64,000 nucleotides of DNA, taken from NCBI GenBank assembly GCA_041918515.1, contig JAYRVO010000170.1, positions 3,526 through 67,525 on the forward strand, read 5' to 3'. The position numbers and the translations under genes are program-made. This document shows positions 126 through 18,331 of the stretch, piece after piece. The notes beneath the pieces were generated by a model. The model had not been told where the DNA came from and did no database searches. It saw nothing but the letters and a program-made list of their open reading frames with translations. Source of the stretch: Chloroflexota bacterium. Its GTDB lineage: Bacteria; Chloroflexota; Anaerolineae; J102. Positions within the stretch are counted from its first letter, which is position 1; each line of letters opens with the position of its first letter.

Positions 126-374
126 ATGACTCTCGAAACCCTTACCCTCATCCTACTGATCACCGGGCTGATCCCCTGGCACATCAGCCGCCGCACCGTA
201 GGACGTCGTCCGCACCTGCGCACCCGCTGGCAGGTCTATGCCATTTTCTGGAGGTTGATCGTGGAGCGTCCTCAGGGGCGCGGCCGTCAGCGAGCCAACT
301 GGCGTCTCACCGTCCCTTTGATCCAGTGTCTGGCCGATGCCGTGTGGACGGCGCTGCGCAAGCTGGTGGCATAG
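126..374 (+). CDS. small hypothetical membrane protein (one predicted TM helix)
   Basis: ORF 81..374 in the six-frame track. GGAGG at 113-117 sits 8 nt before the ATG at 126. There is one hydrophobic helix (LETLTLILLITGLIPW). No recognisable family. Confidence 0.3.
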   Translation: MTLETLTLILLITGLIPWHISRRTVGRRPHLRTRWQVYAIFWRLIVERPQGRGRQRANWRLTVPLIQCLADAVWTALRKLVA

Positions 375-628
375 AGCCGGCAAGCGGGCACCCTACGGCC
401 CCAATCTGCCCTCTCGGTACACTCTCGCTAGCCGGCGCTCAATCAGCGCCGACTGGCTGCTGGCCGAGCGGTCGATATCTGCGCTCCTGGCGAGCCTGGA
501 TAATCTCCGCCTCGATCTCGGCATCTCTCATTGTCTCGCTCCTTGCTGCCGCAGCCGCCTGGCGCAGGCGCGAGACGGCTGCAAGGGCGCGGGCGCGACA
601 CAGGGCAACAACGTTTTCTTCATCCGCA

Positions 629-657
629 TTGACAAGTCTATCCCGCCATGATACACT
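629..657 (+). promoter_or_regulatory. sigma70-like promoter, TTGACA-17-TACACT, upstream of the ATPase gene
   Basis: TTGACA at 629-634, a 17-nt spacer, then TACACT at 652-657. This lies about 47 nt upstream of the ATG at 704. Confidence 0.4.
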
Positions 658-703
658 CACAAAGACTATCTTATTAAGATACGGTCTGATCGAGGAGTAC
701 GCC

Positions 704-2095
704 ATGTTTCGCAATCGTCAACGCGAGTTGGGCTATCTGGAGAGCCGCTACGCCCGGCCAGGGGCTGAATTTGCCGTCCTCTATGGTCGGCGGCGGGTGG
801 GCAAGAGCAGCTTGATCTACGAATGGTGCCGCGAGAAGCCGCACCTGTATTTCTTCGCTGCACGGCTGCCAAGCCAGGCGTTATTGCACGAGTTCGGCCA
901 GCAGTTGGCAGCCGCGTTGGGCCAACCAGAGCGCACCTTCGCCGACTGGGACAGCGCCTTGCTGGCTTTGGCAGAGTTGGGCCGCGAGCGGCGTTTCGTA
1001 GTCGTGATCGATGAGTACCCCTACCTGGCCGATTCCGTGCCGGGCTTTTCGACTCTGCTCCAACGCGCCTGGGATACCGCGCTGCAGCATACACAGCTGT
1101 TCCTCTGCCTGACCGGCTCCACCTACAGCGTGGTGCGGCGGGAAATCCTGGATGGTTCGGCGCCGCTCTATCGCCGCCACACCTGGGCCTACGAACTGCA
1201 GCCGCTGCAGCCGTCCGATCTGCGAGCCTTCTTCCCCAATCTGGACGCCGAACGATTGATCGAGACCTATGCCATCCTGGGTGGGATGCCGCGCAACCTG
1301 CTGTCCTTCGATCCTGAGCTTGGCTTGATGCGCAATATCGCCCGCGAGCTTCTCGATCCGGCCGGCAGCCTGTTCAGCGAGGTGCGTCTGTTGCTGCACG
1401 AGGAACTCAAGGGCGAGGTGGATGCTTTTGCTCGCGTCTTGGGCGCTTTGGCGGCCGGCAACCATCGCCGTCAAGAGGCGGCAGCCGCCGCCAACTTGAC
1501 CCTGGCATCGCTTCAACATTACTTGAACGACCTGGTGACGAACGGGCTGGTCGAGCACCGGCTGCCGCTGAACCGGGATCGTGAGAACGGCCGGCTGGGC
1601 ACATACCACATCCTCGACCCCTTCCTGCGCTTCTGGCACCGCTGGGCCGCCCCGCACCGGGCGCTACTCGAGATCGGCCAGCGGCAGGATGAGACCCTGA
1701 GCGAAATCCGCAACAACCTGCCGTACATCGTGGCGCCGGTATGGGAGTCCCTCGCTCGACAGCATTTGTTGGCGGCCTCGGGCAGGGGGCAGATTCCTTT
1801 TCCGGTGCAGGAGGTGGGGTCGTGGTGGGCGCGTGGGGCGCAGATCGACCTGGTGGGCGTGAACCGGGCAGATCATCGCGTGGTTTTTGGCGAGGCGCGC
1901 TGGCGCAACACACCGGTCACAACGGCCGACCTGAATGCGCTGATGGACAAGGGCCTGCTCTGGCTCCGGGGCGATACAGCCCGCTGGGATGTCCACTACG
2001 CTTTCTTCGCCCGGAACCTGGGGCAGATGGAAGCCGCGGGGATGGACGATGAAAACATCCATCTGTTTACACCTGAGGATGTGACGCTGGCCTGA
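704..2095 (+). CDS. AAA+ ATPase of the archaeal-ATPase/DUF234 family
   Basis: Walker A GRRRVGKSS follows N-terminal MFRNRQRELGYLESRY. A DUF234-like C-terminal region is present (WARGAQIDLVGVNRADHRVVFGEARW). The start was chosen at the in-frame ATG at 704 inside track ORF 326..2095. Confidence 0.75.
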   Translation: MFRNRQRELGYLESRYARPGAEFAVLYGRRRVGKSSLIYEWCREKPHLYFFAARLPSQALLHEFGQQLAAALGQPERTFADWDSALLALAELGRERRFVVVIDEYPYLADSVPGFSTLLQRAWDTALQHTQLFLCLTGSTYSVVRREILDGSAPLYRRHTWAYELQPLQPSDLRAFFPNLDAERLIETYAILGGMPRNLLSFDPELGLMRNIARELLDPAGSLFSEVRLLLHEELKGEVDAFARVLGALAAGNHRRQEAAAAANLTLASLQHYLNDLVTNGLVEHRLPLNRDRENGRLGTYHILDPFLRFWHRWAAPHRALLEIGQRQDETLSEIRNNLPYIVAPVWESLARQHLLAASGRGQIPFPVQEVGSWWARGAQIDLVGVNRADHRVVFGEARWRNTPVTTADLNALMDKGLLWLRGDTARWDVHYAFFARNLGQMEAAGMDDENIHLFTPEDVTLA

Positions 2096-2236
2096 CAGAA
2101 CCTAACCCGGACGAGCCGGAACCAAACTAATCGTTAACCAGGAAGACACCAAGCTGTTCGGTCTCTTCTCCTTCGTGTCTTTGTGCCTTCGTGGTAAATT
2201 TTTTGCTCGCCGTGCAAGAATTTGGCTGGTAAGTTA

Positions 2237-3028
2237 CTAAAGGGTTCCCGAACTGTTAGCTTCCTCGCCCCCCACCACCCCCTCGATCAAAATATCCCCA
2301 AACGGCGTCGCCTGCTCCACCCGCACCTGCCGGCGCTTGAGCAGCTCCAACACCGCCAGCAGACTGACGATGATCTCTACGCGGGACGTGGCCTGACCCA
2401 GAAACTGCCGGAAGTGCACAGCCCTATCCGCCTTGAGCCACTTTTGCAACGCCGCCATCTTGTCCTGCACCGTGATCTGGTGTGGTTCGATGTCGGCCAC
2501 CGGCGTCGGCGGCGCTTCGTAGTCCCGCAACACCTCGAACACGGCCAACCATAGGGTCTGCACGGCCATCCCCGCGGGGTCGAGCCGTTTCTCCAACTTC
2601 GGCGGCGGCGCCAGGCGCACGTAGCCGCGTTGCCCGCTGGCTTCCAGCGTGTGCAGATGTTCGGCCTTCTCTTTGAACAGCTTGTACTCGCGCAACTGTC
2701 GCGCCAGCGCCTCGGCGGGATCCTGTTCCTCTTCTTCGCTCGCTTCGTCGGCTGGCCGCGGCAACAATGCCAGCGATTTGATGTACAACAGCCGCGCCGC
2801 CATCACCAGAAAATCGGCGATGCCATCCGGCCGGCGCTCCTCCAGGGTGGACAGATACGCCAGGTAGCCGCCCGTCACTTGGGTCAAGCTGACGGCGGTG
2901 ATGGGCAACTCCTCCGTCTCGATCAGATGGAGCAGGAGGTCGAGCGGGCCTTCGAAGCGCTCGTCTTCGCCGACATCCAGATGCAGGACGTAGTTGTCGG
3001 CGGGGTGTATCTGCAAGGGGAGGGGCAT
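2237..3028 (-). CDS. scpA: segregation and condensation protein A
   Basis: The kleisin N-terminus PLDLLLHLIETEELPITAVSLTQVT is diagnostic of ScpA. The gene's ATG overlaps the upstream gene's stop as TGACATG. Confidence 0.8.
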   Translation of the reverse strand: MPLPLQIHPADNYVLHLDVGEDERFEGPLDLLLHLIETEELPITAVSLTQVTGGYLAYLSTLEERRPDGIADFLVMAARLLYIKSLALLPRPADEASEEEEQDPAEALARQLREYKLFKEKAEHLHTLEASGQRGYVRLAPPPKLEKRLDPAGMAVQTLWLAVFEVLRDYEAPPTPVADIEPHQITVQDKMAALQKWLKADRAVHFRQFLGQATSRVEIIVSLLAVLELLKRRQVRVEQATPFGDILIEGVVGGEEANSSGTL

Positions 3029-3029
3029 G

Positions 3030-6000
3030 TCAGAACGTCAGGAACGGCTTCCCCGACTGCGCCAGGCGATCGAGCATGGCCTTGGTCTCGGCGAAATCTT
3101 TACCGGCCAGCCGCTCCACCTTGACGCCTGCCGCGCGCAGCTCAGCCTCGACCTCTGGGCTGACGCCGCCCGCACCGCCCACGATGGTGACGTACTCGGC
3201 CTGTTTGGCGTCGTCCAGCGAGAACCCGGCGGTGGGATGGAAGCGGGCGATGTAGTTCATGGCCCCCACCCAGTCTTGCTGCGCCCAACCCTCCGCGCGC
3301 TCCCAGAACAGCAGATAATGGCGGATCGGCTTCTCGGCCGGCGCCACGGCCTCGCCCTTCGCCTCTCGGATTTGCTCGAACAACAGATTCTTCCACTTCC
3401 CCCCTTCCAGCCATTGTTTACCCGGACAAGCGGTGACATTGAGCGGGAACTCCTTATGGCCCCAAACGTTGCCCAACGGGATTCTCAACTCCTGCATCAG
3501 CCAGGCGATGAGGCGGGCAGCGGCGTCGAGCTGCGCCGGCGTGGGCACGACATCCGTGAAATCTCCGGCTACGCACACACCCACTGTGTAGTCGTTGTTC
3601 TTGTAGACGTGATACGAGCTGAGCGCCAGGTCTTGGGTGTGGTAGATTGTGCCGTCGGGGCCGATGTAGTAGTGGTACCCTATCCCCGGCCACTGGTGGG
3701 TGGGGTTGGTGACGTGGTATTGGGCAATGCGTTCGGGCGGAATGTTGGCAGGCGCGGCGCTATGGTGGACGGCCATATGGGTGATCTTGTCCAGCGTGCG
3801 GCTGTTATAACTGCTGTTCGGGTTCTTGGCCAGCTTGTCCACCAATTCCTGCATCGCCGGCTTGACCACCATCTGCGGCGCGCCTGGCTCCGCTGGGGCT
3901 GGCGCGGGGGGGCGAATGGCGCCGTTTTGCATCGCCTCGATTTGCTTTTGCAACGAGGCGATGCTCGCCTGCAATCCCGCCACACTCTTGTTCAGCCGGT
4001 CGCGTTCGTTTTGGAGCGCCTGTTTTTCATTTTGAAGGGCGGTGATTTGGTTTTTGGCCGCTTGCAGATCGCCGGCAAGGGGGACGCCGCCCTGTAATTG
4101 GGCATTTGCCGCAGCCAATTGCTTGCTCAAGTCCTGGTTTTGCGACTGCAACTGGCCCACCTGGGTAGTAGTCGCGACCAATTGCCTGCCCAAATTCTGG
4201 TTTTGCGACTGCAACTGGCCCATCTGGGCATTGATCGCAGTCAGTTGCCTGCTCAAGTCCTGATTTTGTGTCTGCAGTTGACCGATCTGTTGGCGCAAAG
4301 CCTGCGTCACAGCCGTATCGGGACGGTCGCCTTGCAATTGCGCCCTGGCCGCGGCCAACTGCTGTGCCAGATCCTGGTTCTGGGCTTGCAGTTGCGCCAC
4401 CTGCTGGCGTAGCCCCTGCACCAACGCCTGATTACCCGCCTGACCGGGCGCGGGCGGCGCCGACTCGCGCACCGTCTGCACCCGCGCCATCAATAGCTTT
4501 CGCCAATTCTGCCCCTCGCTCCACTGGTTGCCCGGCGAGGCCGTGACGACGAACTCGCGCACCCCCTTCACGTTCTCATCGGTCACATTGTAGGTCTGTT
4601 GCAGCCACGCCACCAACGCCGCCAGGCTGCTCAATTGCACATCGGTGGGAATAGCATCATTGAAATTGCCGGCGACATGGATGCCGATGCCATTGAAGAT
4701 CCACGGCTGATCCTTATCCACGACCTCGGTGATAGCGTTGGTCTGCAAGATGGCGCCGCCGCCATCGATGAAATACTGGCAGACGATGGCGGGCCAATGC
4801 GCCGTGTGCGCTCGTGCCACCCGGTCGGCCCCCACACTCGCCGGCGCGCCGGTGTGGTGGATGACAATGGCGCGGATGTCGCCCTCGCTCCGCCGGATCA
4901 TGTTGCCGTCGCCACGCGGCAACTGTTTGCTCACGTCGCGCAATGCTGGTTGCGGCACGGCGCTCTTCGTGGCCTGCCGCAACGCCGTCTGCAGAGCCGA
5001 GACCTCGGTTTGCAGAGACGCCACCCGCGCGCTCAGCGTCGTCGCCTGCGCGCTCGCGCGGTCCCGCTCTTGCCGGGCCAGGGTCGCCTGTTCGCGCAGC
5101 GCCTCGGTATCTCGGAGCGCCTGTTCGAGTTGCTGGCGCAAGGTCGCCAGCGCGGCATCGTCCACCGGCCCGGCCGCCCCCCCACTCCCGCGCAGCGGCT
5201 CGATTCGCTCGACCAACATCTTCTTCCAGTTTTGGCCGCTCAACCACTGCTTGCCCGGCGATTGCGTGGGTGTAAAACCTTCACTCAAGCCCTTGACCGC
5301 CGTCATTTCCAGCCCATATGCGTCCAGCAGCCAGGCGCACAACGCGGCCAGGGCATCGAGCTGTGCTGGCGCCGGTACAACATCGCTGAAATTGCCCGCC
5401 ACGATGACATTGACGCCTTCCAGCGCCCACGGCGCATTGCTCACCGCCTCGGTCAGGCCGTTGGTCTGATAGATCGCCCCCTCGCTGTCGATGTAGAACT
5501 GGCCGGGCATGGCCGCCATGCCCTTCTGTCGATAAATTTGGGCGATGCGCTCCACCGTGATGGCGCCAGCGATGGCTGTGTGGTGGATGATGACATATTT
5601 GATCTGGCTCTCCGGGCGCGCTACCAATGCCGGCAGATCGCGTGGCAACTGGCTGCTGATGTCCTGGATGTCGGGTCGCGGCGCCGCGCCGCCGAATTGC
5701 TTCAGGCGGTCGCCCAGGCTCTTGACTTGCTGCTGCAAAGCCGAGATCTGCTTACTTGCCTCGAACGCTTGTGACGCCGTCAGCCGCAGCCGCACTTTGC
5801 CCTTTTCGAACTCCTCGACAGCCACACGCTGGAAATACTGCACCGCCATCCCGTTTTCCATGAATGGCTCGGTGATGGGATAGCCGCAAATATCCAGCCC
5901 ATATTTTCGATAGAAGTCCAGGAAGACGCCGCGCACCCAAACCTTCGTCTCCGCGAAGAACTGTTCGGCTGGCAAGGGTGCGGGTTTGACGTTGACCGTC

Positions 6001-7400
6001 GTCCGTAGCACCTGGCTGCCTTTGTCGGCAAACCAGGTGATGTTTTCGTGCACCATGTCCAGGCTGAGCGTGTAGGCGCCGGCCTGGCTTGGCAACCCGA
6101 CTTTGGTCGCCAGCTCGACCGTCTCGCCCGCCTTCACATTGCGCGGCAAAGAGGTGCGATAATCGGCGGCGCCGACCTGATTCCCGTTGCCATCGTACCA
6201 GTGATAGCCCAGTCGCACAGGATTGCCGCCGCTGGCCGCCCATTCCATACTACCGGTATTGCGCACTGTCACCGCCGCCGTCATCTCGCCGCCCGCTTGA
6301 CCTCCAGCCGGCGCTTTCTTCCATTGGATGAGCGCGCCGTAGGTGGCTGTGGCATCGGGCGCCGCCATCCCATCGCTCCGCCAGCGCAATCGCCAATCCA
6401 TCGCCATCTTGAAATCGTCGATCACCCCGCTCTTACCTTCGATATACCACTTATCCAAACGGGGCCAGCGATAAAGAACGAGCGCGCGGATTTGCTGATC
6501 GTTGTTCTTGTTCCAGTAATCGATCTCGCCATAGGCTCGACGCACCCAGCTATTGTTTTCGTTACGCCATTCGTCATCCTGATCGGTTTCGGTGATATAA
6601 ACCGGTAAGCGCCGCATGTCGGCAGGGATCGCCTGCATGAAATCGACATACGTCCGAAAATGATAGTGCCGGTTCTGAAACGGCGCCGCCATCTTCGCCG
6701 GTGAATCGAGCAACGAAGGATCGAAACCGTGTGTATAAGCATGCAGCGTCATGCCATCGCATCCTGCCGGCCCCAGCTGATTCAGCACATCCTGGAAGTA
6801 CTGCACCCAGTCGCCATTTTCGTTGCCAGGATATTTGGTCAGATTGTTCCAGGGGGCGATGGCGCCGGTGAGCACTTGATCGTTTTCGTGTCCTGGTTGC
6901 TTGTGAATGGCATCGCGCGTCATCCGATAGCATTTGACATAACGTTCAGGCGTGATCATCTCACCAGCACTATCTGGCCGGCGAGGTCGTGGGGGATTGG
7001 CGCCCCAATCCCAATCTGCTCCCGGCCACTCGATGGGGTGATTCATCTCATTGCCAATGATCCAGATATGCGCGCCATCAGAATTACGTGCAAAATTGGC
7101 GCAACGCTGGGCAAAATCGGCGTAACGCGCCTCTGGGGGAATGGTGCCCACTCCTCCGTACCCAGCATTCAAGCGCACGATCACGCCCAAGCCCCGATCA
7201 GCAAGACCGCGATAGTTGCCGCCCCGCTGATCATTGGCGTCGAAACCGATGCCTTCCGTGACCAGCACCCAACCTGGAATCCCTTTTTCCAGCATGATGG
7301 ATTCGCCGCCGGGATCGTGCAGCCCGTAAAGGTATTCTGATTCGTTGAGAGGCCCAGCCATAGGCGCGTTCTTGGGGGAAAGTGGAGAAAGGGCAGACAC
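3030..7400 (-). CDS. multidomain peptidoglycan hydrolase: N-terminal GH-A clan glycoside hydrolase, an Ig-like domain, three N-acetylmuramoyl-L-alanine amidase (Amidase_2/PGRP) domains separated by Q/N-rich coiled coils, and a C-terminal domain of unknown function
   Basis: IIGNEMN and VYITETD match the GH-A acid/base and nucleophile motifs. There are three copies of IHHTA..YHYYI/QYFID..VAGNF..CPG.QW (Amidase_2). QLQSQNQDL heptad repeats lie between them. No N-terminal signal peptide is visible. The start is uncertain: GTG at 7400 or ATG at 7361. Confidence 0.7.
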   Translation of the reverse strand: MSALSPLSPKNAPMAGPLNESEYLYGLHDPGGESIMLEKGIPGWVLVTEGIGFDANDQRGGNYRGLADRGLGVIVRLNAGYGGVGTIPPEARYADFAQRCANFARNSDGAHIWIIGNEMNHPIEWPGADWDWGANPPRPRRPDSAGEMITPERYVKCYRMTRDAIHKQPGHENDQVLTGAIAPWNNLTKYPGNENGDWVQYFQDVLNQLGPAGCDGMTLHAYTHGFDPSLLDSPAKMAAPFQNRHYHFRTYVDFMQAIPADMRRLPVYITETDQDDEWRNENNSWVRRAYGEIDYWNKNNDQQIRALVLYRWPRLDKWYIEGKSGVIDDFKMAMDWRLRWRSDGMAAPDATATYGALIQWKKAPAGGQAGGEMTAAVTVRNTGSMEWAASGGNPVRLGYHWYDGNGNQVGAADYRTSLPRNVKAGETVELATKVGLPSQAGAYTLSLDMVHENITWFADKGSQVLRTTVNVKPAPLPAEQFFAETKVWVRGVFLDFYRKYGLDICGYPITEPFMENGMAVQYFQRVAVEEFEKGKVRLRLTASQAFEASKQISALQQQVKSLGDRLKQFGGAAPRPDIQDISSQLPRDLPALVARPESQIKYVIIHHTAIAGAITVERIAQIYRQKGMAAMPGQFYIDSEGAIYQTNGLTEAVSNAPWALEGVNVIVAGNFSDVVPAPAQLDALAALCAWLLDAYGLEMTAVKGLSEGFTPTQSPGKQWLSGQNWKKMLVERIEPLRGSGGAAGPVDDAALATLRQQLEQALRDTEALREQATLARQERDRASAQATTLSARVASLQTEVSALQTALRQATKSAVPQPALRDVSKQLPRGDGNMIRRSEGDIRAIVIHHTGAPASVGADRVARAHTAHWPAIVCQYFIDGGGAILQTNAITEVVDKDQPWIFNGIGIHVAGNFNDAIPTDVQLSSLAALVAWLQQTYNVTDENVKGVREFVVTASPGNQWSEGQNWRKLLMARVQTVRESAPPAPGQAGNQALVQGLRQQVAQLQAQNQDLAQQLAAARAQLQGDRPDTAVTQALRQQIGQLQTQNQDLSRQLTAINAQMGQLQSQNQNLGRQLVATTTQVGQLQSQNQDLSKQLAAANAQLQGGVPLAGDLQAAKNQITALQNEKQALQNERDRLNKSVAGLQASIASLQKQIEAMQNGAIRPPAPAPAEPGAPQMVVKPAMQELVDKLAKNPNSSYNSRTLDKITHMAVHHSAAPANIPPERIAQYHVTNPTHQWPGIGYHYYIGPDGTIYHTQDLALSSYHVYKNNDYTVGVCVAGDFTDVVPTPAQLDAAARLIAWLMQELRIPLGNVWGHKEFPLNVTACPGKQWLEGGKWKNLLFEQIREAKGEAVAPAEKPIRHYLLFWERAEGWAQQDWVGAMNYIARFHPTAGFSLDDAKQAEYVTIVGGAGGVSPEVEAELRAAGVKVERLAGKDFAETKAMLDRLAQSGKPFLTF
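4110..4300. repeat. tandem ~66-bp repeats encoding the coiled-coil linker inside the hydrolase gene
   Basis: About 2.5 near-identical 66-bp units (ttgcgactgcaactggccca.ctggg...) are visible. They translate to QLQSQNQDL-type 22-aa repeats. Confidence 0.8.
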
Positions 7401-7509
7401 CTGTCAGGTCTCGCAGACTTGACAGGTGTTAGGATGCCATCTGTAGTTGCACGGATTATACACACATCGGGCCACATGTCCACCGTTTGCGCAGAGTGTG
7501 AGAGGAGGC

Positions 7510-7515
7510 TATAAT
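7510..7515 (+). promoter_or_regulatory. consensus TATAAT -10 element upstream of aspS
   Basis: GGCTATAATCTG lies about 80 nt upstream of the aspS ATG. The -35 match is only weak (TTTGCG). Confidence 0.35.
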
Positions 7516-7594
7516 CTGAGTCAGGAGAGCCGCGGTCGGACGGTCTCTTTTTTTGTCTTTTGCGTCATTCTCGTTTTTCTGGAGTTTCGCCCCG

Positions 7595-9355
7595 ATGCTG
7601 AAATCCATGCAGTGCGGAAACCTGCGCAAGAGCCATGTCGGGCAACAAGTGACCCTGGGCGGTTGGGTTCATCGCCGCCGGGATCATGGTGGACTCATTT
7701 TCTTCGATCTCCGTGATCGCTCGGGCTTGGTCCAGGTCGTCGTCGGCGCCGACGCCGCTTCGGAAGCCCACCGCGCTGCGGCAGAAATTCGCAGCGAATA
7801 CGTCGTGCAAGTCCACGGCGTTGTCGAACTGCGCCCCGAAGGTCTGATCAACCCCAATCTGGACACAGGCGAGATCGAGATCAACGCTCAGAGGGTCACG
7901 ATTCTCAACCCGGCCCTCCCCACCCCCTTCCCCATCAACGAGGAAGTGGAGGTCAGCGACACCGTGCGGCTGAAGTATCGCTATCTCGATCTGCGTCGCC
8001 AGCGCATGCAGCGCAACCTCATGTTGCGACACCGCATCAATAGCTTCATCCGCAACTATCTCGATCAGAACGACTTTCTAGAGATCGAGACGCCCATCTT
8101 GCTCAAGAGCACACCCGAGGGCGCGCGGGACTTCATCGTCCCCAGCCGCGTGCAACCGGGCAAATTCTATGCCCTGCCGCAGTCGCCCCAGCAGATGAAG
8201 CAATTGCTCATGATCGCCGGCTTCGAGCGTTACTTCCAGATCGCCCGTTGCTTCCGCGACGAAGACTTGCGCGCCGACCGCCAGCTGGAATTCACGCAGC
8301 TCGACCTGGAGATGTCTTTCGTCGAAAGCCAGGACATCCGTGACCTGATCGAAAATCTCATGACTGAGCTTTTCCGCGCGGTCAGCGGCAAAACCATCCA
8401 GCAAAGCCCCTTCCCGGTGCTGACTTATGCCGACGCCATGGCCCGCTACGGCTCTGACAAACCCGATCTGCGCTTTGGCCTCGCCTTTGTCGATCTCACC
8501 GACCTGCTCGCGGCGAGCGGCTTCGGTGTCTTCGCCAACGCCGCCGCTGCAGGCGGCGAAATCAAGGCCATCTGCATCCCCGGCTGCGCCGGCTATTCGC
8601 GCAAACAGATCGACGAATTGACCGAGGAAGCTCAGCGCAAAGGCGCCAAAGGCCTTGTCACGATCAAAGTAGAAGGCGACCAGCTGCACTCGACCATCGC
8701 CAAGTTCCTGACCCCCGTCGAGCTTGATGGCATCCGGGCGCGCTGCCAGGCCCAAGCGGGCGACCTCATCCTCATCGTCGCCGACGCCCCCGCGGTCGTG
8801 GCGGAGGCATTGGGGAGCCTGAGGCTCTTGCTGGGCTACCGCCTGGGCTTGGCCGATCCCAACGTCCTCGCTTGCGCCTGGGTGATTGATTTCCCGCTGT
8901 TGGAGTGGAACGCCGAGGAGAAGCGGTGGGAGGCCAAGCACCATCCTTTCACCAGCGCCCGCGACACCGACTGGCCCCTATTGGACACTGACCCTGGCGC
9001 GGCCCTGGCCAAGGCCTATGACCTCGTCTGCAACGGCATGGAGATCGGCGGCGGCAGCATCAGAATCCACGACCAGGAACAGCAGGCGAAGATGTTCGCC
9101 ACCTTGGGCATCTCGCTGGAAGAGGCGCAGGCCCAATTTGGCCACATGCTCGAAGCCTTCCAATATGGCGCGCCTCCCCACGGCGGCATTGCCCTCGGGT
9201 TGGATCGCATCACCGCCATCCTGTCCGATGAATCCAGCATCCGCGAAGTGATCGCCTTCCCCAAGACAGCCTCGGCCACCGACCTGCTGTTGAACAGCCC
9301 CAGCCCGGTGTCGCCGCGGCAGTTGGCGGAGTTGCATATTGGGGTGATTAGTTGA
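7595..9355 (+). CDS. aspS: aspartyl-tRNA synthetase
   Basis: N-terminal [49 protein letters not shown], the class II motifs ([24 protein letters not shown]) and a GAD insertion domain are all present. GGAG sits 10 nt before the ATG at 7595. Confidence 0.92.
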
Positions 9356-9589: not shown

Positions 9590-9990
9590 CAGGTTGAGGC
9601 GCAGCCGCACAGGACGCAACCGAGACCCCCACCCGCACCCCCACGCCCACCATCACCCCCACGCACACTCGCACGCCCACTCTGACGCCGACCCCAACTC
9701 GCACGCCCACCCGCACCCCCACCCTGACGCCGACCGACACGCCCACACCAACACCGACCGACACGCCCACACCAACACCGACCGACACGCCCACCCCGAT
9801 ACCGACCGACACACCCACACCAACGCCCACCGACACTGCTTCACCGACGTCGACCGACACATCCACACCTACCCCCACCGATACTGCTACACCGACGCCA
9901 ACCAACACACCCACCAACACCGCCACCCCGACCGATACGCCTACCCCCACCAGCACGCCGCGCATCTTCCGTCATTGGCTGCCGCTACTG
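9590..9990. repeat. imperfect ~27-bp-period tandem repeats (ccgaccgacacgcccacaccaacac); coding frame ambiguous
   Basis: One + frame reads as a Thr/Pro linker ([14 protein letters not shown]...) but has no start codon after an upstream TGA. A second + frame is His-rich (track ORF 9495..10010). The minus frame is a (GV)n ORF. Confidence 0.7.
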
Positions 9991-10045: not shown

Positions 10046-10315
10046 ATGTCTACACTTACACGCGAGGCGACGATGATTCCGAGCGCCATTCTGCCCCCAC
10101 AGTTCGTAGTCGATGCCACTGGCCGGCGTACAGCAGTGCTTTTGGACGTGCGTTCATGGGAGTTGCTCTCAGATTGGGTCGAGACCGTTACGGACGTCAA
10201 GGTCGCTCATTTGGGTCTGCAGGAACTCGTGGACGCAGGAGGTCGGCCTGAGCAAGCCGGCTGGCTGGAGTGGGATAACATCCGCGACGCGTGGGACGAT
10301 GACAAAGACAGTTAG
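10046..10315 (+). CDS. type II antitoxin (Phd/YefM-like) paired with the downstream RelE/ParE toxin
   Basis: An 89-aa acidic protein (C-terminal DDDKDS) sits immediately upstream of, and overlaps, a RelE/ParE-family gene. There is an alternative start at 10073. Confidence 0.55.
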   Translation: MSTLTREATMIPSAILPPQFVVDATGRRTAVLLDVRSWELLSDWVETVTDVKVAHLGLQELVDAGGRPEQAGWLEWDNIRDAWDDDKDS

Positions 10316-10637
10316 AGCAGGGACGCTTCAGCCACATTACAAAGTGTGGGTGAAACCAGCGGTACACCTTGCCCGAAAACGACTGCCCGGACATATCCGT
10401 CAGCAAATCAAACGGATCATCGATGAACTGAGCCAGGATCCCCGACCTGATGCCAGCATTGATCTCAGCCTACAGTTCACTGCACCGGATGAATGGGAGT
10501 TGCGGCGGATTCGCTTTGCCGATTGGCGAGTCATTTATGCGGTGAGTGATCTCTGGCGCGAGATTGCCGTGTTGAGCATCCAGAAACGCCCGCCTTACGA
10601 TTATGAGGATTTGGAGTTGCTCTTAGCGGAGCTATGA
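10299..10637 (+). CDS. RelE/ParE-family type II toxin
   Basis: The C-terminal motif RIRFADWRVIYAVSDLWREIAVLSIQKR is typical of ParE/RelE. The ATG at 10299 overlaps the antitoxin's 3' end by 17 nt. Confidence 0.65.
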   Translation: MTKTVRAGTLQPHYKVWVKPAVHLARKRLPGHIRQQIKRIIDELSQDPRPDASIDLSLQFTAPDEWELRRIRFADWRVIYAVSDLWREIAVLSIQKRPPYDYEDLELLLAEL

Positions 10638-10720: not shown

Positions 10721-11602
10721 TCAGACGCCATAAGCGCGGCGAGCGCCGTCGGTGGTGTTGCGCAGGAGCATGGCGATGGTCATCGGCCCCACGCCGCCCG
10801 GCACCGGAGTGATGGCTCCCGCCACCTCTTTGGCTTCGTCGAAGTGGACATCGCCCACCAGCCGATAGCCGCGAGGATCGTTGGCGTCGTCGATGGCATT
10901 GACGCCAACATCTATGACAACCGCTCCTGGCTTGATCCAATCCCCGCGCACCATCTGCGCCCGGCCCACAGCAGCGATCAGGATCTCAGCTTCGCGCACG
11001 ACCGACGGCAAATCAGTGGTGCGAGAATGGCAAATGGTGACGGTGGCGTTGCGGTGGAGGAGGAGCATGGCCGCGGGCAGGCCGACGATGTTGCTACGGC
11101 CCAGAACGACCGCGCGTTTGCCCTCGATCTTGAAGCCGCTACGGATGATCAGTTCGATGCAGCCGCGCGGGGTGCAGGGGGTGAACAGCGGCTCACGGCG
11201 CTTCATCGACAAGCGGCCGATATTGAGAGGATGGAAGCCATCGACATCTTTCTCGATGCTGATGGCGCCGAGGATGTCCTCTTCGTCCAGATGGCCGGGG
11301 AGGGGAAGCTGAACGAGAATGCCGTGGACGTCGGGGTTGGCGTTGAGATCCTGCACGACCTTTTTTAGATCGGCCTGGCTGATGTCGACGGGCAGGTCGT
11401 AGCCGAACGAGGCGATGCCGACCTCGGCGCAGGCTTTCTTCTTCATGCGCACATAAGTTTGCGAGTCTTTGCGTTCGCCGACCAAAACAGCGGCGAGGCC
11501 GGGGACTTTGCCGATGGCGGCCTGCATTTGTGCAACTTCCGCCTTGATTTCTTCCCGAATCTGGGCGGCGATAGCGGTTCCATTGATAATCTGGGCTGAC
11601 AC
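10721..11602 (-). CDS. folD: bifunctional methylenetetrahydrofolate dehydrogenase/cyclohydrolase
   Basis: The protein matches FolD along its full length, including GRSNIVGLPAAMLL and ITPVPGGVGPMTIAML. The start was moved to the GTG at 11602, which is preceded by AGGAGG at a 5-nt spacing. The track ORF begins at TTG 11617. Confidence 0.88.
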   Translation of the reverse strand: MSAQIINGTAIAAQIREEIKAEVAQMQAAIGKVPGLAAVLVGERKDSQTYVRMKKKACAEVGIASFGYDLPVDISQADLKKVVQDLNANPDVHGILVQLPLPGHLDEEDILGAISIEKDVDGFHPLNIGRLSMKRREPLFTPCTPRGCIELIIRSGFKIEGKRAVVLGRSNIVGLPAAMLLLHRNATVTICHSRTTDLPSVVREAEILIAAVGRAQMVRGDWIKPGAVVIDVGVNAIDDANDPRGYRLVGDVHFDEAKEVAGAITPVPGGVGPMTIAMLLRNTTDGARRAYGV

Positions 11603-11794
11603 GAGTGCCTCCTGCAAATGTTAGATAGGGCGATCGAAGCGACCGCAAGGATTTGGCAACTACTATAGCATAGAGTGGGCGGGGACGCAATTTTCTTTGT
11701 AATTTTTAGCACAATCAATCATGCTAACGCCCACCCGACCAACGCCTGCCTCCGTCCCTTTCTTGCATCCGGCGCGGGTTTGTGCTATTCTGCC

Positions 11795-12033
11795 GGCGTA
11801 GTATCCCTCTTATACGCGTGATGCTCTTGAGACGTTCTGAGCCAACACCTACCCAACGGGAGCCGGGCATGCCCTGGTTGACGCGATAGCCCGTGATTGG
11901 CAAGGCGAAAGTCAGGCGAAGGCTCCCACCTGCGCAAGCAGGTTCAAACTAATCTGAGCACACGGTATCCAGGGGGACTACGAGCCATTATTCTTGAGAC
12001 GACCGACCTTGTGTTGCAAGGCCGGTCTTTTTT
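11795..12033 (+). ncRNA. candidate structured small RNA (~235 nt) of unresolved identity
   Basis: A promoter TTGCAT-17-(TG)cTATTCT is present at 11764-11792. The 5' end (GGCGTAGTATCCC) is complementary to the 3' region (GGGGGACTACG). A GCAA tetraloop hairpin (ACCTGC-GCAA-GCAGGT) and a palindromic GGGCATGCCC lie inside. The transcript would end at an intrinsic terminator. No ORF is present and it is intergenic between folD and the MBL gene. Confidence 0.35.
12001..12033 (+). terminator. rho-independent terminator
   Basis: GACCGACCTTG pairs with CAAGGCCGGTC (11 bp, one mismatch) around a 5-nt loop, followed by TTTTTTG. Confidence 0.6.
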
Positions 12034-13311: not shown

Positions 13312-14616
13312 CTAATCGATCGCTTCGGCTAAGGTGCGTTCGAAGATGTCCAGGCCCTCATCGAGAAGAGGACGGGGGATGTTGAGGGCAGGGACGAAGC
13401 GGATGCCGTTGACGCCGCAGCCGATGAGGAGGAGGCCGTGTGCGAAGGCGCGCTCCTCGATGAGGTTGCGGAGTTGGGGGTTCGGCTCGTTGGTTTCCTG
13501 ATCGGTGACGATTTCGACAGCGGCCATCATGCCTTTGCCGCGCACATCGCCGATCTGGGGATAGGTCTTGAGCATGGCGGTCAGGCGTTCCTTGAGGTAG
13601 GCGCCGCTTTCGGCGGCCATCTGGATCAGGCCGTTTTCCAATAGATCGAGCGTGGCCAGGGCGGCGGCGCAGGCGACCGGGTTGCCGCCAAAGGTGCTGG
13701 CATGGGCGCCGGGCGGCCAGGTCATGATCTCGCTGCGGGCGATGATGGCGCCGAGGGGCAGTCCACTGGCGATACCTTTGGCCAGGCAGAGGATGTCGGG
13801 TTCGACGCCCCAGTGTTCGCAGGCGAAGAGTTTGCCGGTGCGCCCCATGCCCGTTTGCACTTCGTCGAGGACGAGGAGGATGCCGTGTTGGTCGCAGATG
13901 CGACGGAGGCCGGGGAGGAAGTTGGCGGGCGGGACGAGGTAGCCGCCCTCGCCCTGGATCGGTTCGACGACGATGGCGGCCACTTCTTCGGGCGGCACCG
14001 CTGTTTTGAAGAGGCGGTCTTCGATGTAGTCGAGCGCGGCCTGGCCTGGTTCCAGCCCTGGCCAGGGGTTGCGGAAGGTGTTGGGGTAGATGGCGTGCGA
14101 GACGCCGGGTACGAGGGGAGCAAAGCCTCGCCGCTGGATGGTCTTGGAGGCGGTGAGGGAGAGGGCGCCGTAGGTGCGGCCGTGGAAAGCGCCGTAGAAG
14201 GCGAGGAAACGAGTGCGTCCCGTGAAGTAACGGGAGAGTTTCATGGCGGCTTCGATCGATTCGGCGCCGGAATTGGTGAAGAAGACTTTGGTGGGGGTGG
14301 ACATGGGGGCGAGGCGGTTGAGCCGCTCGGCCAATTCGATTTCGGTGGGATAATAGAAGTCGGTGCCCGACATGTGGAGGAATTTGTCGGCCTGGTCTTT
14401 GATGGCTTGCACCACGGCGGGGTGGCTGTGGCCGGTGTTGGTCACGGCGATGCCGGTGGTGAAGTCGATGTAGCGTTTGCCGTCTACATCCCAAACTTCG
14501 GAGCCGTGGCCAGAGGCCATGACGAAGGGGTAGCTGCGGGTGTAAGAAGGGGAGAGGTTGGCATGATCTCTCTTGACATAATCAAACGAGATGAGAGGCG
14601 TTGGCGCCGGGGTCAT
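13312..14616 (-). CDS. class III PLP-dependent aminotransferase (ArgD/GabT-like)
   Basis: The sequence matches class III aminotransferases throughout, including LLVLDEVQTGMGRTGKLFA and a PLP-lysine context. Confidence 0.82.
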   Translation of the reverse strand: MTPAPTPLISFDYVKRDHANLSPSYTRSYPFVMASGHGSEVWDVDGKRYIDFTTGIAVTNTGHSHPAVVQAIKDQADKFLHMSGTDFYYPTEIELAERLNRLAPMSTPTKVFFTNSGAESIEAAMKLSRYFTGRTRFLAFYGAFHGRTYGALSLTASKTIQRRGFAPLVPGVSHAIYPNTFRNPWPGLEPGQAALDYIEDRLFKTAVPPEEVAAIVVEPIQGEGGYLVPPANFLPGLRRICDQHGILLVLDEVQTGMGRTGKLFACEHWGVEPDILCLAKGIASGLPLGAIIARSEIMTWPPGAHASTFGGNPVACAAALATLDLLENGLIQMAAESGAYLKERLTAMLKTYPQIGDVRGKGMMAAVEIVTDQETNEPNPQLRNLIEERAFAHGLLLIGCGVNGIRFVPALNIPRPLLDEGLDIFERTLAEAID

Positions 14617-14655
14617 AGACAGGCTCCGTGACGAGAGAGGGTAAAGAAAACGGGA

Positions 14656-16809: not shown

Positions 16810-16832
16810 GTGCTCTGTGATGCCCTGATGTG

Positions 16833-17462
16833 TCAGTTGCCGAGAGATGCTTCGGTGAGCGCCCATGTTTGGGCATAGGCGGCCTGGCCGCGCGCGAGCA
16901 AGGTCTGCATGCGCGCGGCGGCGGCGGCGGCGAAGTCGGCATCCTGGATGGTTTTCAGGTTGATGCGGACGTTGAGCGCGGCGGCCATCATGCCAGCATG
17001 GGCGCAGAGGATGCCAGCGGCGCCATCGCTGGCGGCGTTGGGGTTGCCTTTGGCCAGCACGGTAGGGCCAAGCTCCAGGACGGCGGCGCAGGCGTCGAGG
17101 GTTTCCAGCGGGGTCAGGGTTGCCTGTTGCAGAGCGGCCTGGATGGAGGCGTTGCGGGCGAGGGTCTGGTCTTGTGTGTCTTTGGGTAGTTTGTAGGCGG
17201 ACATCACCGCCTCATAAGCAGTAGTGTCGCGGGCGATGAGCGCGGTCAGGTGGGAGCGCAGGCTTTCAGTCTGAGCCAGAATCTGCTGCATTTCGGCTTC
17301 GACGCTGGCGTATTTCTTGCGCCCAATCGTCAGGTTGCAGACCATGCTCAGCAGCGCCGCGCCTTGCGCCCCCACTAAGGCGGCGACGGCTCCTCCACCC
17401 GGCGCCGGTTCGCCACTGGCCAACTCGTCGAGGAAATGTTGCACAGACAGATCAACAAGCAT
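16833..17462 (-). CDS. formiminotetrahydrofolate cyclodeaminase-like protein (FTCD C-terminal domain family)
   Basis: LSVQHFLDELASGEPAPGGGAVAALVGAQGAALLSMV matches the FTCD_C family. Confidence 0.75.
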   Translation of the reverse strand: MLVDLSVQHFLDELASGEPAPGGGAVAALVGAQGAALLSMVCNLTIGRKKYASVEAEMQQILAQTESLRSHLTALIARDTTAYEAVMSAYKLPKDTQDQTLARNASIQAALQQATLTPLETLDACAAVLELGPTVLAKGNPNAASDGAAGILCAHAGMMAAALNVRINLKTIQDADFAAAAAARMQTLLARGQAAYAQTWALTEASLGN

Positions 17463-17593
17463 TGCACGACTCCATCGTCAAGGGTGAAACCTAGCGGGTG
17501 ACTGCCTTTTTGGCCATCGCCTCGCCGCCGGTGATAGCCAACATATGTCATTGTAGCAGGAAGGGGCAGGTTGTGCCATCCTACCACAAGGAA

Positions 17594-17602
17594 TGGTATA
17601 AT
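17594..17602 (+). promoter_or_regulatory. extended -10 promoter TGGTATAAT
   Basis: TGGTATAAT lies at 17594-17602, and a GGGAG RBS precedes the ATG at 17660. Confidence 0.35.
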
Positions 17603-17659
17603 CTTTGTTCAGAATGATTGTTGATATCCGTTTCTCATCATGACAGGGAGCTTCGAAGC

Positions 17660-18331
17660 ATGGCTGACGATCCGAATCGACAGTGGGCGCCCAACGACGA
17701 AATGGAGCGTTGGGAGGCCGAACAAGCCGATAGTTCGAGGGTGACTCGTGATAGGGCGCTGGCGAACGATGCCGGTATGTATGAGCCGCCGGCGGATATA
17801 GTGGACGACGAGGACGTCGAGGATTTGTCGGCGCGATCGGGGCCGTGGTATAGCTGGAGCATGGTGCGATTGGCCGTGGTGATCGTATTGGCGGCCATTG
17901 TCTTGATTTTGCTGTTGCGTGCGTGCACTTCGCGCTCGACGCCTGCTCCTGGCGCGCAGACCACCCCCGTTGCGACGCTGTCGGCGCCACAGCCCACGTT
18001 TACATCGACGCTCCCCTCGGTCGGCATGACCACGACGGTGGTCGTGTCGCCTACTGTGGCGGCTGTATCACCTACAGCGGCGGCGCCCGTGGGCGGTAGT
18101 TTTCAGAAGGGCCAGCAGGTGAAGGTGGGGGGCACCGAGGGCGAGGGCATCCGTTTTCGCACGGGGCCAGGGCTGGGCTATACGACCACGGCGATTTTGC
18201 AGGATGACATGATCCTGACAGTGGTCGGCGGCCCCGAGCAGGCCGATGGCTACACCTGGTGGCGTTTGCAGACGGCTCGCAGCAGTGTGGGCTGGGCGAC
18301 TGATGGCAATTTGACGGCTGTGCAACCGTGA
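17660..18331 (+). CDS. membrane-anchored protein with a Thr/Pro/Val-rich linker and a C-terminal bacterial SH3-like domain
   Basis: It has an acidic N-terminus, one TM helix (LAVVIVLAAIVLILLL), a TPAPGAQTTPVATLS linker and an SH3b-like C-terminus (GYTWWRL). Confidence 0.55.
   Translation: MADDPNRQWAPNDEMERWEAEQADSSRVTRDRALANDAGMYEPPADIVDDEDVEDLSARSGPWYSWSMVRLAVVIVLAAIVLILLLRACTSRSTPAPGAQTTPVATLSAPQPTFTSTLPSVGMTTTVVVSPTVAAVSPTAAAPVGGSFQKGQQVKVGGTEGEGIRFRTGPGLGYTTTAILQDDMILTVVGGPEQADGYTWWRLQTARSSVGWATDGNLTAVQP

Follow-up and report, generated by a model that had tools for sequence, protein, structure and literature searches.

The window, a 64,000-nt stretch of a Chloroflexota contig, encodes what its sequence indicates is a very large, leaderless, modular wall-cutting enzyme made of phage-lysin-type parts, followed by scpA. 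On comparison with related loci, this pairing is a conserved lineage feature across two Chloroflexota classes and not a one-genome accident. The reading that we favour on balance is that the hydrolase is a domesticated lysin-type autolysin in a conserved two-gene operon with scpA in the Caldilineae and Anaerolineae. The relevant features of the window are:

2237..3028, minus strand: scpA, encoding the kleisin of SMC-ScpAB (263 aa; SMC_ScpA Pfam match)
3026..3032, minus strand: TGA-C-ATG junction (hydrolase stop, one spacer base, scpA start)
3030..7361, minus strand: hydrolase gene (1443 aa plus stop; start ATG at 7359-7361)
3033..3365, minus strand: C-terminal single CWB2-like wall-binding domain (111 aa; AF2 model, Foldseek and profile search)
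3366..3905, minus strand: Amidase_2 module 3, the sole module with an intact active site
3906..4475, minus strand: coiled coil 2 (about 165-190 aa, Q/N-rich), containing 63-nt repeats
4099-4287: three copies of the 63-nt tandem repeat, with a diverged fourth copy at 4339-4401
4476..4955, minus strand: Amidase_2/PGRP module 2, catalytically dead
4956..5195, minus strand: coiled coil 1 (about 70-80 aa)
5196..5678, minus strand: Amidase_2/PGRP module 1, catalytically dead
5766..5984, minus strand: conserved linker domain (about 70 aa), then a short heptad segment, without family assignment
5985..6365, minus strand: Ig-like domain, NBR1 type (N_BRCA1_IG; PF16158 at 8.4e-4, below gathering score)
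6366..7361, minus strand: clan GH-A-like (beta/alpha)8 glycosidase domain (residues 1-332 of 1443)
7455..7482, minus strand: promoter-like site TGGACA-16 nt-TATAAT upstream of the hydrolase gene

A single unbroken ORF occupies 3030-7400 on the minus strand, and scpA (2237-3028) is the next gene. The sequence-only reading gave the hydrolase 1456 aa, which we correct to 1443 aa: all hydrolase homologs have the N-terminal start M.RPL.DSEY.YG.HDPGGE in common and an identical database protein (P0001, 100%) is 1443 aa long, so the ATG at 7361 is the real start. It is preceded by an AAGGA-like ribosome-binding site that is conserved in relatives, and the GTG at 7400 falls within the 5' UTR. Because an in-frame TGA lies two codons 5' of this GTG, no 5' extension could add a signal peptide; such an upstream start, earlier named as the finding that would speak against coupling to scpA, is thus excluded. 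Kyte-Doolittle hydropathy identified neither a signal peptide nor a membrane segment in the hydrolase (top 19-residue mean of 0.97 in the first 60 windows, about residues 1-78, and of 1.56 protein-wide). Homologs number 724 matches at E<=1e-10 (family and LEADERLESSNESS evidence); the best 120 of these 724 share the architecture, with the GH domain right at the N-terminus, and 0/120 have a signal peptide, in line with the absence of a secretion signal first noticed in this protein. In the related loci, no holin-like or transporter gene is conserved beside the hydrolase-scpA pair.

The assignment of the N-terminal domain to a GH-A-type glycosidase holds at the level of the fold. The AF2 model (pLDDT 87, pTM 0.88), in which barrel strand beta-1 begins at residue 12, matches GH26, GH5, GH1, GH35, GH39 and GH128 structures in a Foldseek search of the PDB (E down to 3e-7, TM about 0.5). 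Candidates for the catalytic residues are the Glu of a GNE motif (codon 7047-7049) as acid/base and that of TETD (codon 6588-6590) as nucleophile; the Asn and both Glu of this NE...E pair are invariant in 36/36 sequences. The domain has no Pfam family match and no PDB sequence match, and we read it as representing an undescribed sequence family of clan GH-A retaining glycosidases. The Ig-like domain reported from the letters is also present: its PF16158 match is weak here, and a PF16158-type Ig domain is found in the precomputed Pfam entries of many hydrolase homologs, while one homolog sub-clade lacks it. The linker domain that follows has no Pfam match and is conserved in most hydrolase homologs at 40-89% identity.

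The protein had been called a triple amidase. Three Amidase_2 stretches were indeed identified by Pfam search (8e-49), but catalysis by all three does not stand, as only module 3 has the His/Tyr/His/Cys set. Module 1 has Gly, Leu and Ser where T7 lysozyme has Tyr46, His122 and Cys130; none of the 30 sequences carrying this module has His at the His122 position or Cys at the Cys130 position, which is Ser in 29/30 and Asn in 1/30. The module 2 equivalents are Cys, Val and Ser, with Ser at the Cys130 position in 36/36 sequences and, again, no His in any of them at the His122 position. Both modules are conserved copies that have lost their zinc and catalytic residues and are dead as enzymes; on sequence grounds they are probably peptidoglycan binders. 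Recognition PGRPs (PGRP-SA type) differ from catalytic PGRPs by the same kind of residue loss. As in these non-catalytic proteins, the two modules keep the fold but have Ser for the zinc-binding Cys and no second His; unlike them they are bacterial and lie in tandem inside one enzyme, where a binding role would be by analogy. In module 3 the active-site residues are encoded at 3765-3767 (His), 3675-3677 (Tyr), 3456-3458 (His) and 3426-3428 (Cys); both His and the Cys are invariant in 36/36 sequences, and the Tyr is present in 35/36. The catalytic set is complete in module 3, and its residue at the T7 Lys128 position is Thr, as it is in catalytic PGRPs. Its best PDB matches are phage endolysins, of which the Amidase_2 endolysins 6SRT, 6SSC and 6FHG are nearest, together with catalytic PGRPs.

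The Q/N-rich coiled coils described from the sequence are confirmed by strong heptad periodicity, with 50-80% L/I/V/M/F at a/d positions versus 0-6% elsewhere and a Q+N content of up to 38%. The DNA repeats said to encode them have a unit of 63 bp instead of 66 bp, equivalent to 21 aa or three heptads, and span only part of coiled coil 2. The AF2 model of the C-terminal domain (pLDDT 88.7) resembles the CWB2 domains of C. difficile SlpA and Cwp8 in Foldseek (TM 0.59-0.64, rmsd 2.1-3.1), and its family profile retrieved Cwp8 (2.6e-11), SlpA (3e-9) and Cwp6 (0.004) from the PDB; by these comparisons the domain is homologous to CWB2. The B. subtilis LytC protein is a CWB2-anchored autolysin. Like it and C. 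difficile Cwp6, the hydrolase combines an amidase with CWB2, but those proteins have three CWB2 copies, an Amidase_3 domain and a Sec signal peptide, whereas the hydrolase has one CWB2, Amidase_2 and no signal peptide. CWB2-anchored Firmicutes proteins carry three tandem copies, all required, and in C. difficile one copy is insufficient to anchor a protein (PMC4973711). One C. difficile endolysin has just a single CWB2-derived binding domain, which functions in oligomeric form (PMC9045149).

It had been suggested that a lysin was co-opted into the division machinery, and of this the lysin origin is supported by a GH domain common to phage lysins and by the last two modules, where a single CWB2-like domain comes after an active Amidase_2 in an endolysin-type layout (PMC9045149). 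This support does not extend to a role at the septum or in division, or to physical contact of the hydrolase with SMC-ScpA. Forty IMG/VR contigs encode leaderless proteins that join the GH domain to M23, SLT, GH108, muramidase or SH3 domains, and these lysin genes adjoin DNA polymerase, primase and terminase genes and small membrane ORFs. Modular phage endolysins (mycobacteriophage LysA-type, Thermus phage Amidase_2 and C. difficile CD16/50L, PMC9045149) likewise have no signal peptide and place a wall-binding domain at the C-terminus after serial catalytic modules, and in CD16/50L-type endolysins (PMC9045149) this is a single CWB2-type domain. In contrast to phage endolysins, the hydrolase is chromosomal with housekeeping flanks and no holin, is three to five times bigger than those compared, includes two dead amidase modules and >250 aa of coiled coil, and is an ortholog kept across two classes in an operon with scpA. 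Secreted relatives of the GH domain have Sec-type signal peptides with CBM6, CBM35 or PA14 domains, and because these relatives carry polysaccharide-binding CBMs, a wall polysaccharide is predicted to be at least as likely a GH substrate as peptidoglycan glycan. The domain is also fused to STAND NTPases (nSTAND1; ATPase_2 + PD40), an architecture typical of conflict systems. LytA of Streptococcus pneumoniae is a leaderless chromosomal Amidase_2 autolysin of 318 aa, in which a single catalytic domain is joined to choline-binding repeats. These repeats (mentioned in PMC4973711) bind a wall polymer non-covalently from the C-terminus, so that LytA parallels the hydrolase in location, amidase type, lack of a signal peptide and mode of attachment, but it has no GH domain, coiled coils, dead modules or link to scpA.

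The scpA product matches Pfam SMC_ScpA over profile positions 1-230 of 232 (2e-25), NCBIfam PRK00104 models (5e-43) and PDB ScpA chains (3W6J at 1e-20; also 4I98, 3ZGX and 5XG3). It is a full-length ScpA in which the N-terminal and C-terminal winged-helix regions are both present. The junction reads TTC TGA C ATG, with the hydrolase stop at 3030-3032 and the scpA start at 3026-3028; one base lies between them, and the overlap of stop and start proposed earlier does not exist. No clear Shine-Dalgarno sequence precedes scpA in the window, and there is no -10-like hexamer in the 500 nt before its start. The promoter-like site upstream of the hydrolase gene matches the sigma-70 type at 11/12 positions and is the only such match in 1900-7700; its extended -10 TGTGTATAAT and GGACA/AGACA -35 are kept in 8/9 aligned relatives. 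From this arrangement we infer that the two genes are co-transcribed, and scpA is probably translationally coupled to the hydrolase. The -10 of the divergent aspS (ATTATAG on this strand) is conserved as well.

Synteny in relatives, the check proposed for the coupling idea, is present: scpA is directly downstream on the same strand in 46/52 evaluable long-form loci of Caldilineae and Anaerolineae (the others being L019, L021, L022, L023, L025 and L043) and downstream of 0/13 shorter or split hydrolase paralogs, counted per locus in relatives that are almost all MAGs. Independent gene calls concur with this adjacency. The spacer has a median of 14 nt and is <=30 nt in 27/37 loci, while at several junctions stop and start overlap (ATGA or TAATG); since the spacer reaches 159-330 nt in a few cases and another gene stands between the two in one locus, coupling is not obligatory. 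The genes remain adjacent, with spacers <=30 nt, in relatives that share 33-62% identity in the hydrolase and 42-79% in ScpA. The flanks vary by clade (aspS, MBL-fold + TPR, inositol monophosphatase or pyruvate dehydrogenase genes), so the pair survived rearrangement of its surroundings. Because synteny held in relatives, co-expression of a kleisin gene with a wall hydrolase is a lineage feature, and we found no literature on this pairing. The canonical SMC-ScpAB operon is scpA-scpB, often scpA-scpB-rluB-cmk. The ScpA encoded here resembles its product in being a full-length kleisin whose N-terminal and ScpB-binding regions match solved ScpA-ScpB complexes, but its gene has a wall hydrolase as upstream partner and, as the sequence-only reading stated, no adjacent scpB; the 79 related loci likewise have none next to scpA. 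The gene following scpA is a convergent ATPase_2/DUF234 gene, and one close relative has rluB, cmk and a PBP5-type gene no more than 10 kb away.

In the favoured reading, the GH domain probably hydrolyses a beta-linked glycan of the wall. One candidate is the backbone of peptidoglycan, and a polysaccharide attached to the wall is at least as likely. Module 3, a predicted active zinc amidase, would cut MurNAc-L-Ala. Modules 1 and 2 most likely only bind peptidoglycan stem peptides. The long coiled coils would space the modules and probably oligomerise the hydrolase, while the single CWB2-type module would hold it on a wall polymer, multivalency coming from the coiled-coil oligomer and not from the usual three tandem CWB2 copies. 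Oligomerisation and wall binding by the dead modules are suggested by domain composition, and an extracytoplasmic target by the CWB2 homology, the secreted GH relatives and the endolysin/PGRP-like module 3. The conserved hydrolase promoter would drive scpA, and ribosomes ending the hydrolase probably re-initiate on scpA, which would tie SMC kleisin output to wall hydrolase output during growth and division.

A possible alternative, to which we give about half the weight of the favoured one, is operon inertia, in which an ancestral insertion placed the hydrolase gene upstream of scpA, scpA came to rely on the hydrolase promoter, and the pair persists only because separation would silence an important gene, with no functional relationship. 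Mixed-function operons are common, no promoter belonging to scpA itself could be recognised in the window, the conserved neighbours include no further gene for segregation or division, and both genes are retained where the pairing is broken (6/52 loci) or the spacer is 159-330 nt. Against inertia, spacers of <=30 nt were kept despite divergence of both proteins and reshuffled surroundings, the usual scpA-scpB adjacency was given up for this pairing, and the shorter paralogs never carry scpA.

It is rather unlikely that the hydrolase is cytoplasmic in normal growth, either reaching the wall on membrane failure in the manner of LytA or mother-cell lysins, and serving programmed lysis, filament breakage or abortive infection, or processing fragments inside the cell as AmpD does. 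The GH domain shared with phage lysins and fused to STAND NTPases fits such a role, as does the lack of signal peptides throughout the family, whose neighbour genes in related loci, unlike it, have ordinary Sec or lipoprotein signals. Several homologs are also named 'AmpD' by JGI, but module 3 is closest to endolysins and PGRPs, with no AmpD chain among its PDB matches at E<=0.01. The CWB2 and dead PGRP modules are predicted wall binders and have no obvious cytoplasmic use, and it would be odd for a suicide enzyme to share a promoter that looks constitutive with a gene of essential type. Lastly, a prophage remnant, with a leftover chromosomal endolysin only incidentally close to scpA, would account for the leaderless, modular lysin-like architecture and the occurrence of the GH domain on phage contigs. 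This is close to refuted by the housekeeping flanks (aspS, scpA, folD and 6S RNA) without phage genes or a holin, the even GC content over the region, and orthologous conservation at the same place across two classes.

The conserved pairing, which we read as that of an autolysin of lysin type with a kleisin gene, suggests joint expression of wall-cutting and chromosome-segregation functions in these Chloroflexota.

On the minus strand of the window, 3030-7400 is a single uninterrupted ORF, followed directly by a 263-aa ORF. The sequence-only reading had taken the first as a 1456-aa peptidoglycan hydrolase initiating at GTG 7400. A database protein of identical sequence is 1443 aa long, all 120 of the best homologs open with the same N-terminus (M.RPL.DSEY.YG.HDPGGE), and in relatives an AAGGA-like ribosome-binding site stands ahead of the equivalent ATG; the real start is therefore ATG 7361. 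The same reading had the hydrolase stop overlap the scpA start. The junction is TTC TGA C ATG, so that the genes lie 1 base apart. The pair and the promoter elements ahead of it are as follows.

2237-3028, minus strand: scpA, 263 aa
3030-7361, minus strand: hydrolase gene, 1443 aa
7482-7455, minus strand: TGGACA-16-TATAAT, the sole sigma-70-type promoter match in 1900-7700
7483-7552, aspS-hydrolase intergenic region: two back-to-back conserved promoter elements in the alignment with L002-L012 and L121 (related loci in other genomes, L121 from a close relative)
Element 1, aspS side: ATTATAG (CTATAAT on the aspS strand)
Element 2, hydrolase side: GCAAACGGT-GGACA...TGTGTATAAT

The 263-aa ORF encodes a full-length ScpA, the kleisin of SMC-ScpAB, with both its N-terminal and its C-terminal winged-helix regions. 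It matches Pfam SMC_ScpA (PF02616) at 2e-25 over profile positions 1-230 of 232, and the NCBIfam PRK00104 segregation/condensation protein A models at 5e-43, under the equivalog cut-offs. The N-terminal, ScpB-binding part matches PDB chains 3W6J, 4I98 and 3ZGX, and the C-terminal winged helix matches 5XG3 and 5H66. Genomic adjacency of scpA and scpB is usual, not obligatory. That no scpB is adjacent here agrees with tblastn using a B. subtilis ScpB query, which found no match in the window or in 79 related loci, a weak negative; the ScpB Pfam family is also absent from the gene calls of L121-L123.

Of 9 relatives, 8 conserve the extended -10 of the hydrolase promoter, TGTGTATAAT, which stands back to back with the aspS -10. 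An internal scpA promoter was considered and rejected on a consensus scan, which gave no TATAAT-like hexamer (<=1 mismatch) in the 500 nt upstream of scpA; the scan gave no promoter match inside the hydrolase gene either. Because of these promoter data and the 1-nt spacer, the two genes are likely co-transcribed, and termination-reinitiation at their junction is plausible.

The hydrolase family comprises 724 matches at E<=1e-10, whose named sources are all Chloroflexota MAGs. Conservation of the gene order was assessed in 79 loci, from the best 80 of 589 relatives (nearly all MAGs), with one genome scanned per species and scpA located by tblastn and by an HMM built from its hits. The pairing proved to be conserved: scpA immediately follows the hydrolase gene, on its strand, in 46 of the 52 evaluable long-form loci, including Caldilineales (class Caldilineae) and Anaerolineales (class Anaerolineae), at identities of 33% to 62% for the hydrolase and 42% to 79% for ScpA. 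Measured from the hydrolase stop to the closest plausible ATG of scpA, the spacer has a median of 14 nt (<=30 nt in 27 of 37), and several junctions overlap as ATGA or TAATG; a few loci have spacers of 159-330 nt, and one has an intervening gene. Independent gene calls with precomputed Pfam labels give the same order. Six loci with the long form (the full hydrolase architecture) have no scpA despite at least 1.2 kb of downstream sequence, and scpA follows none of the 13 short (~800 aa) or split paralogs.

The surrounding genes differ between clades (divergent aspS in the window; elsewhere MBL-fold and TPR genes, inositol monophosphatase or pyruvate dehydrogenase genes), and thus the pair has survived repeated rearrangement. 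We found no third gene kept on the same strand after scpA, the ORFs there being spurious high-GC frames. Convergent with scpA, at least 20 loci encode a glycosyltransferase of the GT4 type and a VanZ-like membrane protein, in some cases as a single fusion protein, and glmS often follows. In Caldilineaceae, the long hydrolase is immediately preceded by another leaderless gene (~1010-1130 aa; the same GH domain as the hydrolase, with SH3_3 and Peptidase_M23), so that the array comprises three genes: GH-SH3-M23, GH-Ig-PGRPx2-amidase-CWB2 and scpA. Two further paralog types occur, neither adjoining scpA, and at least one MAG (CAYUCC01, loci L016 and L072) carries both a long form and a paralog.

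Gene arrangements and paralog types among the related loci
GT4 and VanZ-like genes downstream of scpA, opposite strand: L003, L006-L008, L010, L013, L015-L017, L020, L024, L026, L027, L029, L038, L041, L048-L050, L079
GH-SH3-M23 gene upstream: L058, L064, L068, L071, L074, L076, L035
Paralog type, ~800 aa: GH-Ig-one amidase-CWB2
Paralog type, adjacent gene pair: ~1030 aa (GH-amidasex2-CWB2) and ~660 aa (amidase)
Paralog loci, both types: L033, L034, L036, L039, L040, L042, L044; L055, L057, L061, L065, L067, L072, L073

Further downstream in L121 are plsC-like, cmk, rluB and Peptidase_S11 genes, a stretch that looks like the remnant of the common scpA-scpB-rluB-cmk neighbourhood minus scpB. 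The gene convergent with scpA in the window also follows scpA in L121; as the L121 product has 467 aa, its start is probably well inside the 589-aa ORF listed for the window. This gene and other features of the window are:

326-2095, plus strand: gene for ATPase_2 (PF01637) plus DUF234, convergent with scpA
9625-9922: C/A-rich tandem repeats of periods 12, 18, 24, 30 and 48 (e.g. CCGACCGACACGCCCACACCAACA, 8 copies), in the gap separating the aspS end from two small ORFs at 10046-10637; they yield long predicted His/Pro/Thr/Asp-rich or Gly/Val-rich ORFs on both strands
11801-11981, plus strand: 6S RNA (SsrS; Rfam RF00013, 60.8 bits, gathering score 46.4), just past the start of folD (10721-11617, minus strand)
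14001-18000: strongly positive GC skew (0.39 and 0.25) compared with the rest of the window
31806-32101: 15-nt tandem repeat in nearly 20 copies (TTCACGCCGGAGATG), with a 30-nt super-period (91% match); a five-residue protein repeat if translated

The N-terminal GH (glycosidase-like) domain spans residues 14-345 in the numbering of the 1456-aa ORF, which we keep for the protein anatomy (the real protein is minus 13), and is modelled by AF2 as a (beta/alpha)8 barrel at pLDDT 87. Its top Foldseek matches in the PDB all belong to clan GH-A (GH26, GH5, GH1, GH35, GH39, GH128, GH10), with E down to 3e-7, TM about 0.5 and identity of just 8-16%. A GNE motif follows a strand at model residues 99-102 and a TE motif at 254-256; all 36 diverse homologs compared keep both the Asn-Glu that follows strand 4 and the Glu that follows strand 7. 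The GH-A-type assignment made from the sequence thus holds on the modelled fold and the residue pair, and the barrel with its putative acid/base and nucleophile glutamates would place the domain in the '4/7' clan of retaining glycoside hydrolases. Neither this domain nor the C-terminal one has a usable Pfam match on its own, and family profiles were needed for both. Against Pfam, the GH domain matched DUF5722 alone (E=0.21), and its phage relatives give weak GH53/DUF5722 matches; there was no PHROG match, and its family profile found no PDB sequence at E<=1. By these three comparisons, it appears to lie in no named GH family.

Amidase_2 (PF01510) scores 165.7 bits (cut-off 26) over three stretches that we number modules 1 to 3 from the N-terminus. 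We aligned them to T7 lysozyme (zinc ligands His17, His122 and Cys130, and catalytic Tyr46). Module 3 alone carries the His/Tyr/His/Cys set; both His and the Cys are unchanged across all 36 sequences, and the Tyr is present in 35 of them. In modules 1 and 2, respectively, Gly and Cys occupy the Tyr46 position and Leu and Val the His122 position, and both have Ser at Cys130. Family-wide, the second-His position in these modules is never His and the Cys position never Cys, the latter being Ser in every module 2 copy and in 29 of 30 module 1 copies (Asn in the other). Thus, the proposed triple amidase keeps its three Amidase_2 stretches and loses two of its three active sites: because the full set is found only in module 3, the protein has one amidase and two conserved pseudo-amidases, module 3 being the sole predicted MurNAc-L-Ala amidase. 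The PDB relatives are endolysins, PGRPs and T7 lysozyme, and module 3 most resembles the Amidase_2 endolysins of phages and the catalytic PGRPs.

The Ig-like domain noted from the sequence is of the NBR1 type, weakly matched here and recorded for many homologs, and is followed by a conserved segment of ~70 aa without family assignment. The segments between modules are, as described, Gln/Asn-rich coiled coils with strong heptad periodicity. The DNA repeats said to encode them, given as 66 bp, have a period of 63 nt (21 aa) by TRF and by a repeat finder, occur three times in tandem at 4099-4287 and once more, diverged, at 4339-4401, and encode just part of the second coiled coil.

The last 111 residues form a small alpha/beta domain (AF2 pLDDT 88.7). 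In structure it most resembles the CWB2 domains of SlpA and Cwp8 from C. difficile (TM 0.59-0.64), and its profile matches Cwp8 at 2.6e-11 and SlpA at 3e-9 in the PDB; the Pfam CWB2 model (PF04122) was not reported at E<=10 for the single sequence. We assign it as a predicted single CWB2-type wall-binding module. In C. difficile, all three tandem CWB2 copies are required for anchoring (PMC4973711), and the hydrolase carries a single one, at its very C-terminal end. A phage endolysin that has just one CWB2-derived domain must form a homodimer in order to bind (PMC9045149).

Searched against 1.84 billion cluster representatives, the GH profile matches 1280 proteins at E<=0.001, of which 709 reach E<=1e-30. 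In the majority of the top 150, the domain begins within residues 1-30 and no leader precedes it, and 14 of 143 GH-domain proteins have a Sec-type signal peptide right before the same conserved N-terminus. Five of those with a signal peptide were scanned against Pfam: three have CBM6/CBM35, F5/8-type-C or PA14 domains; the remaining two have CARDB, SH3_3 or CarboxypepD_reg. In 40 IMG/VR contigs, leaderless proteins carry the domain at their N-terminus, fused to Peptidase_M23 (once with SH3_3 between), SLT, GH108, PF11860 muramidase or SH3_3; their genes adjoin those for DNA polymerase, primase and terminase, in some cases with small membrane ORFs. From these secreted, fusion and phage-lysin occurrences, we infer that the domain is a carbohydrate-active module acting outside the cytoplasm and, in phages, a predicted lysin part. 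It also occurs inside large proteins with an N-terminal STAND NTPase (nSTAND1 or ATPase_2), namely the database proteins P0179, P0191 and P0229. PD40 beta-propeller repeats end the first two, and P0229 showed nSTAND1 only; conflict or defence systems typically have proteins built in this way.

A Sec/Tat-secreted autolysin would carry an N-terminal signal peptide or membrane anchor, and a hydrophobicity scan showed neither a signal peptide nor a membrane segment anywhere in the hydrolase. The first barrel strand begins at residue 12 of the 1443-aa protein in the AF2 model, making the N-terminus part of the barrel, and 0 of 120 homologs have a signal peptide. An upstream start supplying one is ruled out, as an in-frame TGA two codons before GTG 7400 makes an N-terminal extension impossible. 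The lack of a secretion signal noted from the sequence therefore stands. A phage endolysin would sit in a phage genome or in a lysis cassette with a holin; module 3 and the phage GH proteins point towards lysins, and the flanks are housekeeping genes with no small membrane ORF adjoining the hydrolase. These flanks and the class-wide orthology reject a prophage origin of the locus. Neither a holin nor a transporter gene is kept near the pair. A cytoplasmic recycling amidase of the AmpD type is judged unlikely in view of the CWB2 module, the secreted or CBM-bearing GH relatives and the absence of AmpD chains among the PDB matches of module 3 at E<=0.01.

The hydrolase looks like a domesticated, oversized lysin, and its parts are all of known kinds except the GH sequence family. 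Two cutting heads, the glycosidase and the module 3 amidase, would act on a wall gripped by the two dead PGRP modules and the CWB2 module. The coiled coils would serve as spacers and probably as oligomerisation devices, and such an oligomer would provide multivalency like that of the homodimeric single-CWB2 endolysin. The glycosidase may cleave the peptidoglycan backbone; a polysaccharide linked to the wall is no less likely a substrate, given that some relatives bear CBMs and that GT4, VanZ and glmS genes lie nearby.

As to scpA, the best reading is that expression of the kleisin is forced to go along with that of a wall-cutting enzyme; we consider it unlikely that hydrolase and ScpA are connected more deeply, in function or physically. 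A wider reading, taken as a whole, is similarly unlikely. In it, translational coupling would hard-wire kleisin synthesis in filamentous Chloroflexota to a leaderless autolysin of lysin origin with a non-Sec exit; the pair would coordinate segregation with septal wall splitting or perforation, or with programmed filament breakage; and the GH domain would found a new lysin GH family for a wall glycan that no known lysin family targets.

Literature searches on hydrolase-scpA pairing, Chloroflexota amidases and GH-A endolysins returned nothing relevant, and the lipocone paper mentions no more than an unrelated insertion that separates scpA from scpB. It appears unreported that the operon with scpA is class-wide, that scpB is displaced, that the family as a whole lacks an export signal, that two pseudo-amidase modules are conserved together, and that phage lysins share the uncharacterised GH family.

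If the pairing is mere operon inertia, an ordinary though unusually elaborate autolysin remains. Large wall enzymes with wall-binding modules and without an export signal pose a secretion problem, for which a non-classical route or controlled lysis could account. The GH domain is a candidate for a new family of lysins or glycosidases, with possible enzybiotic interest. The hydrolase-scpA pair takes the place of the usual scpA-scpB arrangement, and a hydrolase-kleisin operon in an under-studied, largely filamentous phylum would offer a genetic handle on how segregation and wall remodelling are coordinated outside model organisms.
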